From a bacterium HR29 (GTDB taxonomy: Bacteria > Chloroflexota > Dehalococcoidia > Tepidiformales > Tepidiformaceae): a DNA stretch of 64,000 nucleotides. A model generated the notes under the pieces. The model did no database searches. It was not told the origin of the DNA and saw only the letters and a list, made by a program, of their open reading frames with translations. This document shows positions 52,378-57,881 of this stretch, piece after piece (position 1 is the first letter of the stretch; each line of letters opens with the position of its first letter). The stretch spans positions 841,602 through 905,601 of the forward strand of contig BEIF01000001.1 in the NCBI GenBank assembly GCA_002898215.1. The letters run 5' to 3'. The position numbers and the translations under genes are program-made.

Positions 52378-53649
52378 TCAGCTCGCCGCGGCTGCCCGGG
52401 CTGCCTCCACAACCTTCTCCGCCGCCTCGCCGAGTTCGGCGGCACGGATGACGGAGATTCCCGCCTCGCGAAGGAGCGCCTCGCCCTCGGCGAGGTTCGT
52501 CCCCACCAGCCGCATGACGATGGGGACGCGAATCTCCATCTGTCGGAACGCCTCGATGACGCCCTGGGCGATGATGTCGACCCTGGCCATCCCCCCGAAG
52601 ATGTTGATGAGGATGGCCTTCACCGACGGGTCCTCGAGGATGACCCGAATGGCGTTCACCACGCGCTGCGCGTCGTTGACGGTGCCGATGTCGAGGAAGT
52701 TCGCCGGCTCCCCGCCCGCGAGCTTGATGACATCCATCGTCGCCATGGCCAGGCCGGCGCCGTTCACGATGCAGCCGATGTTGCCTTCCAGCTTGATGTA
52801 GTTCGCGATGCCGAGCTCCTGGGCACGCACCTCGAGCGGGTCCTCCTGCTCCCGGTCGCGCAGTGCTGCCAGGTCCTGTCGCCGGAAGAGGGCGTTATCG
52901 TCGAGGTTGAATTTCGCGTCGAGGGCGAGGAGCCGGCCGTCGGCGGTCACGACCAGGGGGTTGACCTCCACCAGGCTCGCATCGTTGTCGACGGCGCAGC
53001 GATAGAGGCCCTCGGCGAGCTTCGCGAGCTGCGCGGAAAGGTCGGGGTCGGCGAAGCCTAGCCGTGCGGCAAGGACGCGGCCGATGTACGGCTGGTAGCC
53101 CGCAGCTGGGTTCACCGGAAGCCGGACGATCGCATCCGGATTCCGCCGGGCCACCACCTCGATCTCCTGCCCGCCCTCGCTCGACGCGAGGATGAGCGGA
53201 GAGGCCGTCGCCCCGTCAACGATGATGGAGAAGTAGTATTCGCGCACGACGGACGATTGCTCCTCCACGAGGACGCGGCGGACCGGCTTCCCTTCCGGAC
53301 CTGTCTGGATGGAGACGAGGACTTTACCGAGGATGTTCGCCGCTTCCCGTTCGGCCTCTTCGGGCGAATCGACCAGACGAACACCGCCGACGCGGGGACC
53401 CCGTACCTGGCCTTCATGAGCGGCCGGGTCGCTGAGGAGGCTGCGGTACATCGCGGGCGCCTCTTCGGGCGCCACGATGCGGCCCTTGCCGCGCCCCCCG
53501 GCATGGATTTGGGCCTTGATGACCGCTTTGCCGCCCAACTCCTGCGCGATGGCACGGGCCTCTGCCGGCGTGGCAGCGACACGGCCGCGGGGCACGGGCA
53601 CGCCGTAGCGCGCGAACAGCTCTTTCGCCTGGTACTCGTGGATCTTCAC
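52378..53649 (-). CDS. sucC: Succinate--CoA ligase beta-subunit family protein (divergent, with insertion)
   Basis: MKIHEYQAKELFARYGVP, HAGGRGKG, NIGCIVNGAGLAMATMD, and INIFGG motifs. It is 423 aa versus the usual ~390. Confidence 0.8.
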   Translation of the reverse strand: MKIHEYQAKELFARYGVPVPRGRVAATPAEARAIAQELGGKAVIKAQIHAGGRGKGRIVAPEEAPAMYRSLLSDPAAHEGQVRGPRVGGVRLVDSPEEAEREAANILGKVLVSIQTGPEGKPVRRVLVEEQSSVVREYYFSIIVDGATASPLILASSEGGQEIEVVARRNPDAIVRLPVNPAAGYQPYIGRVLAARLGFADPDLSAQLAKLAEGLYRCAVDNDASLVEVNPLVVTADGRLLALDAKFNLDDNALFRRQDLAALRDREQEDPLEVRAQELGIANYIKLEGNIGCIVNGAGLAMATMDVIKLAGGEPANFLDIGTVNDAQRVVNAIRVILEDPSVKAILINIFGGMARVDIIAQGVIEAFRQMEIRVPIVMRLVGTNLAEGEALLREAGISVIRAAELGEAAEKVVEAARAAAAS

Positions 53650-53732
53650 ACGCGACTCCAGAGGGGAACTGGGACTGAGGGAAGCCTACCAGCGCCGCGC
53701 CCTAGGTTGAACCACCGCGAAGCTCCCTTCGG

Positions 53733-53817
53733 CGGAGAGGGTGGGATTCGAACCCACGGAGGCGAACGCCTCGGCCGTTTTCAAGACGGCTCCCTTCAAC
53801 CACTCGGGCACCTCTCC
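53733..53817 (-). tRNA. tRNA-Ser (TGA), long variable arm, CCA not encoded
   Basis: Cloverleaf on the minus strand: ggagagg/cctctcc acceptor, anticodon stem gccgt/acggc with loop ctTGAaa, variable arm gaggcgttcgcctc, T loop ttcgaat. -10 TACAAT (53830-53825) lies 7 nt before the mature 5' end. Confidence 0.9.
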
Positions 53818-53842
53818 GAGAGCCATTGTACGGCCCCGCGCC

Positions 53843-53869
53843 TTAGCACTCTTGACGTTTGAGTGCTAA
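53843..53869. promoter_or_regulatory. CIRCE element (HrcA operator): TTAGCACTC-N9-GAGTGCTAA, a perfect match to the consensus
   Basis: Read directly: ttagcactc ttgacgttt gagtgctaa. All 18 specified positions match the established CIRCE consensus. The element is AT-rich in a ~70% GC context. Confidence 0.85.
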
Positions 53870-53924
53870 CGCCGGAAGAATGGAGCCGACGCACGGATTG
53901 CACAGCCCAGCGGGGGAGAAGACG

Positions 53925-54167
53925 ATGCCGACCTACGAGTATCAGTGCCAGGAGTGCGGGGCGACCTACGAGCTCCAGGAGAGCTTCACAGCCGCCTCGA
54001 CGCACACCTGCCGGAAGTGCCAACGGGGAACGGCGAAGCGGGTGCTCCATGCCCCGCGGATCGTCTTCAAGGGGAGCGGCTTCTACGTCACCGATAACCG
54101 GAAGGGCTCGCCTTCCGATTCCGACTCCTCCAGCGAGAGCGTGAAGTCCGAGTCGGCGGCCTCGTAG
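53925..54167 (+). CDS. FmdB-family zinc-ribbon protein (CxxC..CxxC) with Ser/Asp-rich tail
   Basis: MPTYEYQCQECG..HTCRKCQ..VFKGSGFYVTD is the canonical FmdB/TIGR02605 pattern. GGGGGAG SD. Confidence 0.8.
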   Translation: MPTYEYQCQECGATYELQESFTAASTHTCRKCQRGTAKRVLHAPRIVFKGSGFYVTDNRKGSPSDSDSSSESVKSESAAS

Positions 54168-54246
54168 GGCGCCTGGAGGAATATTCGTTCACCGCGAAGG
54201 AACAGCCTTTGGGGCGCGCGCGCCGTAGGGTATACTCGCGCCCGAG

Positions 54247-55560
54247 TTGAGCGCTACCGATCGAGCCCGGGGGGTGCATCCTCGTGGCGTCGCGGCCCGG
54301 CGCCGCATCCTGGCCGCCGCGCTGGAGCTCTTCCTTTCGGAGGGCTACGAGGCGGCCACGGTCCGCGCTATCGGCCGCCGTGCAGGCGTTTCGGATTCGG
54401 CGCTCTACTACTACTTCGAAAGTAAGGCAGCGATCCTCGAAGCCCTCCTCGTGGAGCCCCAGTGGCCGTACCCGGAGCGCCCCATCCGCACGGTCGCCGA
54501 CCTCCGTCAGCTCGCCCTAGACCAGTTCTCCGCCTGGCTGCAGAACGCCTCGCTCGTCCGCCTCACCATGCGGGAGGCGCTTTCCGGTCAGCCGCTGGCG
54601 CGCCACTTCTCGGTCCGCATGACCCAACTGGCGGAGCAGCGGATTTGCGATGCGGCGGCGAAGGTCTTCCCTCCCGACGAAGCGGAGGCCGTCAGCGAAG
54701 CGCTCGATGCAGTGCGCTTCGGTGCCATCGCCGACGCCCTCCTCCACGCTGTCGACCAGCTCGAACGGTACGCATCCTCCGAGGAATACCGCGCTTGGTT
54801 GGCCACATTGGTCGATTTGGTCCTTCCGGAGGCGGCTCCGGGGCCGCCATCTGCGCCCATCGTTCCGTTCCCCCGCGCGACGGAGCTTCGCCTCGATGCG
54901 GACGGCTCGCACCGACCGGACGACGAGGCCGGAGGAGGGCCGCGCGAGTCCATCCGTCGTACGCCACGGGAGCGGGGAAATGAGCGCACGCGGGAGCGGA
55001 TCCTGCAGGCGGCGGCGGAGCTCTTCGCCGAACGCGGCTTCGATGGAACGTCCATGAAGGCGGTGGCTGCGCGGGTCGGCCTGTCCGACGCCGCGCTCTA
55101 CTACTACTTCCGCTCGAAGCACGAACTCCTCGAAGCGCTCTGGGACATCCCCGAAATCCGGCGCTTCGGGGGCAGGGAACAGCCCGAATTCCCCTCCACG
55201 CTCGCCGAGCTCGTCGATGCCGTGGCGGACACCATCGCCGCCCAGGACACCATCATCCGCCTCACAGCCGTGCGCACCCTCGCCGGCGACCGAACGGCCC
55301 GCTCCCTCCGCGAGTACACGCTCGCCCGGTGGAGGCAGTACCTCCTCCGCTGGCTGGAACGCCGCCTCGCCTTGCCTCCCGGCCGACGCGAGCGCGTGGC
55401 CGACGCCCTCACGCTCGCGGTCCTGGGGACCGTGTATCCCGCACAGATTCGCTACGGTACCGACGCGCCATCGTACTTCCGCAGTCCCGAGTATCGAGGC
55501 AGGCTGCTCCGGACCGCGGAGCGGCTCGTGGGAGGGGCGGTCCCGGCCGCCGGGAGTTGA
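54247..55560 (+). CDS. Tandem (duplicated) TetR-family regulator: two complete TetR units in one 437-aa chain
   Basis: Two HTH regions: RRRILAAALELFLSEGYEAATVRAIGRRAGVSDSALYYYFESK and RTRERILQAAAELFAERGFDGTSMKAVAARVGLSDAALYYYFRSK. Each is followed by about 150 aa. TTG start, with an upstream TATACT -10 (54231-54236). Confidence 0.75.
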   Translation: MSATDRARGVHPRGVAARRRILAAALELFLSEGYEAATVRAIGRRAGVSDSALYYYFESKAAILEALLVEPQWPYPERPIRTVADLRQLALDQFSAWLQNASLVRLTMREALSGQPLARHFSVRMTQLAEQRICDAAAKVFPPDEAEAVSEALDAVRFGAIADALLHAVDQLERYASSEEYRAWLATLVDLVLPEAAPGPPSAPIVPFPRATELRLDADGSHRPDDEAGGGPRESIRRTPRERGNERTRERILQAAAELFAERGFDGTSMKAVAARVGLSDAALYYYFRSKHELLEALWDIPEIRRFGGREQPEFPSTLAELVDAVADTIAAQDTIIRLTAVRTLAGDRTARSLREYTLARWRQYLLRWLERRLALPPGRRERVADALTLAVLGTVYPAQIRYGTDAPSYFRSPEYRGRLLRTAERLVGGAVPAAGS

Positions 55561-55568
55561 GCGCAGGC

Positions 55569-56054
55569 ATGCGGCTCGTCATCCAGCGGGTGAACCGCGC
55601 CAGTGTCACCGTTGGCGAACAGCAGGTATCCGCCATCGGGCAAGGCATGCTGGTGTTGGTGGGCATTCGCCGTGGCGACACGGAGGAGACCGCACGCCAG
55701 CTCGCCCGGAAGACCGTCGAGCTCCGCATCTTCGAGGACGCCGCAGGATTGATGAACCGTTCGCTCCTGGAGACGGGCGGCGAGCTGCTGGCCGTCAGCC
55801 AGTTCACCCTCTACGCCGATGCCCGGCGCGGCCGTCGCCCTTCGTTCGCAAAGGCGGCACCGGCGGAGGCAGCCCGGCCCATCTTCGAGGCCTTCTGCCA
55901 GGCCGTCGAAGACGCCGGCGTACCCTGCCGACGGGGAGCCTTCGGCGCCGAGATGCTGGTGGAGCTCATCAACGACGGGCCGGTGACGATCGTCCTCGAC
56001 TCCGACGAACTGGCACGTCCGCGCCGGCAACGCAATGATGTGGGGGAGCCCTGA
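55569..56054 (+). CDS. dtd: D-aminoacyl-tRNA deacylase
   Basis: MRLVIQRV.., LLAVSQFTLYAD..GRRPSF, and NDGPVT motifs. Confidence 0.9.
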   Translation: MRLVIQRVNRASVTVGEQQVSAIGQGMLVLVGIRRGDTEETARQLARKTVELRIFEDAAGLMNRSLLETGGELLAVSQFTLYADARRGRRPSFAKAAPAEAARPIFEAFCQAVEDAGVPCRRGAFGAEMLVELINDGPVTIVLDSDELARPRRQRNDVGEP

Positions 56055-56084
56055 ACGGCGCCACGACCTGCGGGGACCAAGCCG

Positions 56085-57824
56085 ATGCGGATGACCCGAT
56101 TCGTAGTGAAGACGCTGCGGGAGGCGCCCTCCGAAGCGGAGACGCCGAGCCATCGCCTCCTGCTGCGAGCGGGGCTCGTCGTCCCGCTGGCAGCCGGTCT
56201 CTACTGCTTCACGCCCTTCGGCTGGCGGGTCGCTAGGCGCATGGAGGCCATCATCCGCGAAGAGATGGACCGCTCCGGTGCGCTCGAGGTTCACCTCCCC
56301 GCGCTCCAGCCCATCGAGCTCTGGCAGCAGTCGGGACGGGACCGCGCCTTCGGCCCGGTGCTGTTCCGCCTGCAGGACCGACGGGAGCGGTGGTTCGCCC
56401 TCGGTCCCACGCACGAAGAGGTCGTCAGCTTCCTTGCCGCTCGCCACATCCAGAGCTACCGCGACCTTCCCTTCACGCTGTACCAGATTCAGACGAAGTT
56501 CCGCGACGAGATTCGTCCGCGCGGGGGCCTCATCCGCTTGCGCGAGTTCATCATGATGGACGCCTACAGCTTCGACGCCGATTGGGAGGGGCTCGACCGC
56601 TCGTACGAGGCAGCCTTCCAGGCGTACCTACGAATCTTCGCCCGGGCCGGCATCCCGGTCATCGCCGTCGAGGCGGATTCCGGCGCCATCGGCGGAAAGG
56701 ACAGCCAGGAGTTCATGTACCTGACGGAGGTGGGCGAGGACACCATCCTCCGCTGCGAGCGCTGCGGGTATGCGGCGAACGCCGAAAAGGCCGACTTCCG
56801 GCGGCCGCCGCCGATCCCCGGTGAACCCCGGCCCCTGGAGAAGGTAGCTACCCCCGGAGCATCCACGATCGCCGAACTGGCGGCCTTCCTCGGCATCGAG
56901 CCCCGGGCGACCTGCAAAGCTGTCTTCTACGAAGTGGACGGGCGCCCCGTGTTCGTCGCCATCCGTGGAGACCTCGACGTGAACGAGGTGAAGCTGAAGA
57001 ACACGCTCAAGGCGAAGGACCTCGCTCCGATGGGAGAGGAGGCGGTACGGCGCGCGGGACTCGTCGCGGGATATGCGTCGGCCATCGGGTTGCCCGCCGG
57101 GATTCTGGTTGTGGCGGACGAGAGCGTCGTCGACGCCCCCAACCTCGTCGCCGGCGCGAACGAACCGGGTTTCCACCTCCTCAACACGAACTACGGCCGG
57201 GACTGGCGGGCCGATATCGTCGCCGATATCGCCCTGGCCCGGGCGGGCGACGGCTGCCCCCGCTGCGAGGGCACCCTCGAGACCCGACGCGGGATCGAGA
57301 TGGGGCACGTCTTCAAGCTCGGTACGGTGTACGCGGAGTCCATGGATGTCCGCTACCTGGACGAGCGCGGAGACCAGCGCCCGGTGGTCATGGGCTGTTA
57401 CGGAATCGGCCTGGAGCGGATGATCGCCGCCTGCATCGAGGCGAATCACGACGAGGACGGAATCATTTGGCCGCCGGACGTCACCCCCTTCGACGCCCAT
57501 ATCGTGGTGCTCAACGCCGACCGCCCCGAGGTAGCCGATACGCTCGCCGCCCTCGAGGCGAGCTTCGCCGCTGCCGGCTTGGACCCGCTGGTCGACGACC
57601 GCGACGAGTCGGCCGGAATCAAGTTCAAGGACGCGGACTTGCTGGGCATTCCCGTCCGGCTCACCGTCAGCCCCCGAGCCCTTCAGCAGGGCGGCGTGGA
57701 GGTACGGCGGCGGCGGACGGGCGAGACGCGTATCGTTCCGGCCGCCGAAGCGGTACAGGCGGTGCGCACAATCCTGGAGGAGGAGTCGGGAGCGGTGGGA
57801 GCCGCTCGAACGCTTGCGTCGTGA
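56085..57824 (+). CDS. proS: Proline--tRNA ligase (bacterial type with editing insertion)
   Basis: Class II motifs (FRDEIRPRGGLIRLREF, GIEMGHVFKLG, GCYGIGLER), 579 aa. Confidence 0.92.
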   Translation: MRMTRFVVKTLREAPSEAETPSHRLLLRAGLVVPLAAGLYCFTPFGWRVARRMEAIIREEMDRSGALEVHLPALQPIELWQQSGRDRAFGPVLFRLQDRRERWFALGPTHEEVVSFLAARHIQSYRDLPFTLYQIQTKFRDEIRPRGGLIRLREFIMMDAYSFDADWEGLDRSYEAAFQAYLRIFARAGIPVIAVEADSGAIGGKDSQEFMYLTEVGEDTILRCERCGYAANAEKADFRRPPPIPGEPRPLEKVATPGASTIAELAAFLGIEPRATCKAVFYEVDGRPVFVAIRGDLDVNEVKLKNTLKAKDLAPMGEEAVRRAGLVAGYASAIGLPAGILVVADESVVDAPNLVAGANEPGFHLLNTNYGRDWRADIVADIALARAGDGCPRCEGTLETRRGIEMGHVFKLGTVYAESMDVRYLDERGDQRPVVMGCYGIGLERMIAACIEANHDEDGIIWPPDVTPFDAHIVVLNADRPEVADTLAALEASFAAAGLDPLVDDRDESAGIKFKDADLLGIPVRLTVSPRALQQGGVEVRRRRTGETRIVPAAEAVQAVRTILEEESGAVGAARTLAS

Positions 57825-57856
57825 TGCTATACTTCACGGGTAGGCAGACCTGAGAC

Positions 57857-57881
57857 AGGTGGGCTCTCGCCCACCTTTTTG
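57857..57881 (+). terminator. Rho-independent terminator after proS: aggtgggc-tctc-gcccacct followed by TTTTT
   Basis: 8-bp GC-rich stem, 4-nt loop and a T-run, read directly. It ends 9 nt before the nusA ATG. Confidence 0.75.

Follow-up and report, generated by a model that had tools for sequence, protein, structure and literature searches.

The CIRCE element at positions 53843-53869 of the window (the whole stretch of DNA that was analysed, 64,000 nt) is read here, with a probability of about 0.87, as the operator through which HrcA would control the promoter of a ruc homologue, and the zinc-ribbon protein encoded by this gene as a Ruc-type product predicted to be repressed by HrcA. The link between HrcA and ruc is already known from M. 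tuberculosis, and the locus described here is an ordinary new example of it from the Chloroflexota.

The element consists of two arms (TTAGCACTC and GAGTGCTAA) separated by a spacer of nine nucleotides with the letters TTGACGTTT (complete element, TTAGCACTCTTGACGTTTGAGTGCTAA), and agreed with the consensus at 18 of 18 positions, with 0 mismatches. It was the sole CIRCE-type match within the 64,000 nt when up to three mismatches were permitted, and the chance expectation obtained with shuffled sequence was 0.01 match per window; the initial annotation had regarded a match at all 18 positions as essentially impossible by chance. The element, to which no strand was assigned, was predicted to be an HrcA operator by pattern match and by its presence at 21 of 22 loci of the same family (described below). 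It is placed between a gene for tRNA-Ser(UGA) on the minus strand and a gene for an 80-aa zinc-ribbon protein on the plus strand. In an Rfam scan of positions 53600-54300, no family besides tRNA reached threshold.

A promoter scan of positions 53650-54350 returned a sole sigma-70-type promoter, TTGACG-18-AAGAAT, on the plus strand. The -35 box (TTGACG, 53852-53857) coincides with positions 1-6 of the CIRCE spacer and the -10 box (AAGAAT, 53876-53881) follows after 18 nt; the right CIRCE arm lies in the -35/-10 spacer of this promoter and fills most of it. Both AAGAAT and the spacing of 18 nt fit the consensus only moderately well. Transcription of ruc would be expected to start near 53888, and because this position lies downstream of CIRCE, the element would not be transcribed from the ruc promoter; it should act as DNA only, and not as an mRNA element. 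The CIRCE elements of B. subtilis are found downstream of the -10 box and are transcribed. A role as a transcribed 5'-UTR stability element of the B. subtilis type was considered and rejected, since the conserved -35 box inside the element puts the start downstream of it.

The open reading frame of the 80-aa protein begins with the ATG at 53925, 55 nt past CIRCE and 6 nt after a Shine-Dalgarno-like GGGGGAG (53912-53918, plus strand), and ends at 54167. The protein matched Pfam Zn_ribbon_8 (PF09723, 45.8 bits) and the FmdB family of NCBIfam (TIGR02605, 58 bits), which bears out the earlier description of a plus-strand FmdB zinc-ribbon gene 55 nt downstream of the operator. FmdB-family proteins were originally named 'putative regulatory proteins'. 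Cys residues are present at positions 8, 11, 29 and 32 (CxxC...CxxC), and the sequence VFKGSGFYVTD (motif VFKGSGFYxTD) is carried in the layout MPTYEYQCQECG...THTCRKCQ...RIVFKGSGFYVTD. In the AlphaFold2 model, pLDDT was 94-96 for residues 1-40, modelled as a confident beta zinc ribbon of four beta strands, 81 for residues 41-50 and 46-57 for residues 51-80, a Ser-, Asp- and Glu-rich tail of low pLDDT with no secondary structure. A BLASTP comparison with the Ruc orthologue of Nocardia jejuensis gave 44% identity (E 1e-19), and the gene (53925-54167, plus strand) was designated a ruc homologue from PF09723, TIGR02605, BLASTP and AlphaFold2. The genome contains six FmdB-family paralogues, and of the six the gene at 53925-54167 alone has VFKGSGFYxTD, a disordered tail and CIRCE.

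The small M. tuberculosis protein Rv0991c (Ruc) combines a four-Cys zinc ribbon at its N-terminus with a C-terminus that is disordered. Heat induces it; it binds zinc, is turned into a holdase by oxidation and interacts with DnaK (Becker et al. 2020, PMC7448276). Its gene is induced by SigH, is one of just four genes under direct HrcA repression, and has an HrcA site that overlaps the SigH promoter (PMC7448276; the HrcA regulon data are those of Stewart et al. 2002, as cited there). Members of the Ruc family have a zinc ribbon of about 50 aa and a hydrophilic disordered C-terminal region of 7-61 residues (PMC7448276). The comparison with Rv0991c was made via peptides translated from the mutagenesis primers of PMC7448276 and via Nocardia and Rhodococcus orthologues, drawn from among the relatives of the window protein. 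The primer-derived peptides (MPTYSYE(C)TQ(C)ANRFDVV, DDALTT(C)ER(C)SGRLRKLF and AVGVVFKG) place Cys at positions 8, 11, 29 and 32 and VFKG at the end of the ribbon. The four Cys residues of the window protein are at the same positions as in Rv0991c, those of the C8S/C11S and C29S/C32S primers. The Nocardia and Rhodococcus orthologues (MPTYSYACTECDN[KR]FDIV, GKLRKLF and VGIVFKG) closely resemble the primer-derived M. tuberculosis peptides. The tail of the window protein, of about 30 residues, is shorter than that of M. tuberculosis Ruc and within the range of the family.

No Hsp33 was found in this genome, which fits the pattern described for the Chloroflexi, where Hsp33 homologues are rare or absent and Ruc is common (PMC7448276). 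Hsp33 (HslO) is the functional analogy that has been proposed for Ruc, with four zinc-binding Cys residues, activation by oxidation and transfer of clients to DnaK; the two proteins have no sequence or fold relationship.

The other parts of an HrcA regulon were searched for in the assembly (2.34 Mb, 4 contigs, 69% G+C). It contained five perfect CIRCE elements, one with one mismatch and one with two mismatches, the window site included, and a reversed control pattern gave 0 matches against these seven sites. The hrcA gene itself (C4:25839-26879) was identified by the equivalog model TIGR00331 (299 bits; cut-off, 197.2) and also by PF01628. Sites precede hrcA-grpE-dnaK (C4:26895), groES-groEL (C2:58303, with 1 mismatch) and a second groEL, groEL2 (C3:230202). 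Both hrcA and the further CIRCE sites that the initial annotation had proposed to look for are thus present in the genome.

Loci of ruc were obtained from 40 relatives, and 22 loci belong to the same family; the nearest named relatives are Tepidiformaceae, including Ca. Amarobacter (Chloroflexota). CIRCE was found upstream of ruc in 21 of the 22 same-family loci (15 perfect, 5 with one mismatch and 1 with three), about 37-73 nt before the start codon, and the linkage of CIRCE with the fmdB-like gene, another point that had been put forward for checking, is therefore kept in relatives. Promoter layout was compared in 23 CIRCE-bearing loci, these 21 and two from named Tepidiformaceae-type MAGs. 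In all 23, TTGAC[A/G/T] occupies the same spacer register (positions 1-5 = TTGAC) and an nAnnAT hexamer follows 17-20 nt (mostly 18) past the -35 box; the flanks outside the operator and promoter elements are not conserved. The lone same-family exception, L017 (genome G022), has lost the arms and kept TTGACG-N17-CACAAT and the divergent tRNA-Ser, and is, as far as its sequence tells, a natural de-repressed variant. At four more distant, Dehalococcoidia-type loci (L035, L037, L060 and L072), a perfect CIRCE is located just downstream of a TTGAC[AT]-N17-TAAAAT/ATAAAT promoter, that is, in a Bacillus-like position. In a phylum-wide sample, CIRCE (three mismatches or fewer) was present within 300 nt upstream of ruc at 17 of 80 loci, 5 from Chloroflexota, 7 from Actinomycetota (Nocardia and Rhodococcus among them) and 5 of 5 from Eremiobacterota, and no CIRCE-like site was detected elsewhere in the 80 loci, which were taken with up to 2.5 kb of sequence on either side of ruc. 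By these counts the linkage is an old one, widespread as well as specific.

The Eremiobacterota sites (MAG loci L057, L085, L087, L109 and L111) are CIRCE-like, with 2-3 mismatches and ATTGAC in the spacer, and lie just 18-22 nt before the ATG; their layout resembles the design with the -35 box in the spacer, in another phylum.

With the operator and promoter arranged in this way, an HrcA dimer bound to both arms would cover the -35 box and the promoter spacer, and because such a dimer overlaps the promoter, RNA polymerase would be occluded at normal temperature. HrcA activity needs GroEL, and the regulon is de-repressed when unfolded proteins titrate GroEL. Upon such titration at this locus, HrcA would become inactive and ruc would be switched on with groES-groEL, groEL2 and hrcA-grpE-dnaK, giving the predicted heat induction. 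By homology to Rv0991c, the product would release zinc on oxidation, act as an ATP-independent holdase and pass its clients to DnaK. The initial annotation had described the operator as having no chaperone gene nearby, which is incorrect because the zinc-ribbon gene itself belongs to the Ruc chaperone family. Its suggestion that a zinc-ribbon protein belongs to the heat-shock regulon is favoured by hrcA, by the other CIRCE sites and by the linkage in 21 of 22 loci; its remark that this would be unusual does not stand, since the gene is a homologue of Rv0991c, which is directly repressed by HrcA (PMC7448276).

Two other readings of the operator and of its gene were weighed against this one. It is extremely improbable that the CIRCE is a dead relic or a chance palindrome, given a match at every consensus position against the expectation of 0.01, a register with the promoter that is held fixed across more than 20 genera, and 80 sampled loci that are free of CIRCE-like sites elsewhere, up to 2.5 kb on either side of ruc. 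The operator could also be functional and the zinc-ribbon protein be a heat-shock-controlled regulator or nucleic-acid-binding factor in place of a Ruc-type holdase. The FmdB family (TIGR02605) is heterogeneous and has six paralogues in this genome, the only member assayed as a chaperone is that of M. tuberculosis, with about 44% identity across the zinc ribbon, and the gene is kept beside dtd and proS, not beside chaperone genes. Such a function is nevertheless quite unlikely for a protein with the Cys spacing of Ruc, VFKGSGFYxTD and a disordered hydrophilic tail, features lacking in the other five paralogues, and with HrcA co-regulation with groE and dnaK as in M. tuberculosis; a Ruc-type product is preferred.

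The divergent gene gave rise to a further alternative. The tRNA-Ser(UGA) gene (53731-53817, minus strand; ARAGORN, and Rfam RF00005 at 57.2 bits) is the sole copy with that anticodon in the genome. As described in the initial annotation, it is located on the minus strand and has a -10-like box, TACAAT (53830-53825), 7 nt from the mature tRNA 5' end and 12 nt from CIRCE; the box was assigned as part of the tRNA-Ser promoter from the sequence and from similar -10-like boxes ahead of tRNA-Ser in several relatives. With a 17-nt spacer, the -35 position would be 53848-53853 (AAGAGT), inside the left CIRCE arm, and the earlier proposal that HrcA would sit over the -35 position of the tRNA agrees with this. 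The tRNA 5' end is just 25 nt from CIRCE in this genome and in a relative of the same genus. HrcA bound at CIRCE could then repress the tRNA gene in addition to ruc, or in its place, and couple tRNA supply to heat shock. This is unlikely, because the tRNA adjoins ruc in just 7 of the 22 family loci, whereas CIRCE is kept in 21, and because in other genera the gap from tRNA to CIRCE is 36-38 or 50-51 nt, which leaves the tRNA promoter outside the operator. L017, moreover, retains the tRNA and its -10 box without CIRCE; AAGAGT is a poor -35 candidate, and no minus-strand promoter passed the scan of 53650-54350. Repression of a single-copy tRNA-Ser(UGA) in normal growth would also be costly and hard to square with its role. 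HrcA control of the tRNA gene, as suggested earlier, is thus disfavoured by the limited adjacency, the variable gap and L017. A short leader speaks against special control as well, since short leaders are usual in this genome: for 30 of 48 tRNA genes a TANNNT box was found 6-15 nt ahead of the mature 5' end, so that primary tRNA transcripts across the genome should carry leaders of about 0-8 nt. For the same reason the short leader is not special to the tRNA-Ser locus, the reading of 53731-53817 as a special leaderless tRNA gene was ruled out, and a near-leaderless transcript would not be the oddity it had been taken for. The tRNA gene is most likely a bystander, with a promoter that abuts the operator by chance in this genus. 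Steric interference with tRNA-Ser is conceivable in this genome given a -35 position inside the CIRCE arm, and as the operator overlaps the presumed divergent -35 in this genus, it may not act on ruc alone. Examples of the TANNNT box are those at 53818-53830 of the window and upstream of 48188.

Downstream of ruc, a gene for a tandem (two-domain) TetR regulator (54247-55560, plus strand; 437 aa, two TetR_N stretches) is present as the initial annotation had it, and is followed after 8 nt by dtd (D-aminoacyl-tRNA deacylase; 55569-56054, plus strand; TIGR00256, 171.6 bits) and, after a further 30 nt, by proS (prolyl-tRNA synthetase; 56085-57824, plus strand; NF006625, 713 bits). The tandem TetR gene was found after ruc in 10 of 33 relatives' loci tested, own locus counted; here, as in part of the relatives, it has been inserted between ruc and dtd. 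A predicted -10 box of its promoter is TATACT (54231-54236, plus strand). Of the 9 loci with the gene that were examined, 8 have this box 6-10 nt ahead of its start codon, which suggests an mRNA that is leaderless or nearly so and is made from the gene's own promoter. In this genome the first in-frame TetR start after TATACT is TTG at 54247, or GTG at 54274. The order ruc-dtd-proS is conserved (window 53925-57876 and loci L010-L046), with a ruc-dtd gap of 3-43 nt in relatives that have no TetR gene, and dtd appears to be the ancestral immediate downstream partner of ruc. Because these gaps are so short, dtd is probably co-transcribed with ruc in the TetR-less relatives, and in this family it is probably part of an HrcA-controlled transcript. 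From the ruc promoter onwards, the terminator scan gave no terminator-like site until a hairpin at 57857-57876, after proS, and read-through from the HrcA-controlled promoter into tetR, dtd and proS is possible. These features can be joined in a wider reading, to which we give little credence, in which HrcA and CIRCE act both ways here: ruc and the single-copy tRNA-Ser(UGA) would be repressed together, and the de-repressed transcript would read into tetR-dtd-proS, in line with the terminator scan. A spacer about 12 nt shorter would have moved the divergent -35 position into the operator arm. Were this so, the heat-shock repressor would be tied to decoding capacity and to translational quality control.

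The preferred reading, an operator acting on the ruc promoter, has clear parallels in known systems. As in M. tuberculosis (PMC7448276), the protein has the four Cys residues at 8/11/29/32, a ribbon ending in VFKG and a Ser-rich, disordered tail, and its gene has an HrcA operator that overlaps the promoter and would be co-regulated with groES and groEL. The two differ in the operator, here a CIRCE of perfect consensus whose spacer contains a sigma-70-type -35 box and there a site overlapping a SigH promoter, in the partners (here dtd, proS and the inserted tandem TetR gene), and in the host, a Chloroflexota member related to the Tepidiformaceae. With the CIRCE/HrcA systems of the B. subtilis type (hrcA-grpE-dnaK-dnaJ and groESL) the locus shares the 9-N9-9 inverted repeat, the repressor family and the presumed logic of GroEL titration, and the groES, groEL2 and hrcA operons of this genome carry CIRCE themselves. 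It differs from them in the -35 box inside the CIRCE spacer and in an element that would be upstream of the transcription start.

To a specialist the HrcA-ruc link at this locus is unsurprising. A link proven only in M. tuberculosis now extends to the Chloroflexota, where one family shows it in over 20 genera, and is also seen in Eremiobacterota and in several Actinomycetota. Such a distribution supports the view that Ruc has from ancient times been at the core of the HrcA heat-shock regulon, above all in lineages that lack Hsp33. The locus also provides an annotation rule, by which an FmdB-type gene with VFKGSGFYxTD and a disordered tail behind CIRCE is annotated as a Ruc chaperone and not as a 'putative regulator', and it is an example of a compact operator in which the CIRCE spacer contains the -35 box. 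In the literature on CIRCE or HrcA with FmdB, zinc ribbon or Chloroflexi, the Ruc paper (PMC7448276) alone was found.

Three further CIRCE sites of the genome are outside the window. A perfect element at C3:155021-155047 (L002, 1501-1527) is located between two divergent genes, a 51-aa CxxC...CxxC ORF (C3:154813-154965, minus strand) and a gene for a GPR1/FUN34/YaaH-family membrane protein (C3:155115-155834, plus strand). Among 24 relatives, the small ORF had one weak match, broken by a stop codon, and the YaaH-family gene had no match; near-absence in these relatives ruled out both as conserved members of the HrcA regulon, and the site looks like a strain-specific addition to it. A second perfect element, C4:23235-23261 (L004), lies between the dnaK stop (23335) and the start of the next gene (23214), which is on the same strand and weakly glycosyltransferase-1-like; that makes it a second operator, placed within or after the hrcA-grpE-dnaK operon at a point where dnaJ could have been expected. 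The CIRCE-like site C2:81801-81827 (L007), with 2 mismatches (TTATCACTG-N9-GAGTGCTAA), is upstream of a MarR-family gene.

When read towards the gene, the sites at hrcA (C4:26895), groES (C2:58303), groEL2 (C3:230202) and C3:155021 have the form TTAGCA-N18-TAAnnT, with TAAGAT, TAACAT and TAAACT as the TAAnnT forms, and on account of this form CIRCE resembles a -35/-10 pair at these four sites. The ruc site is unlike the other four, in that it reads TAACGC and carries a -35 box of its own in the spacer, which suggests that one genome uses two operator-promoter designs.
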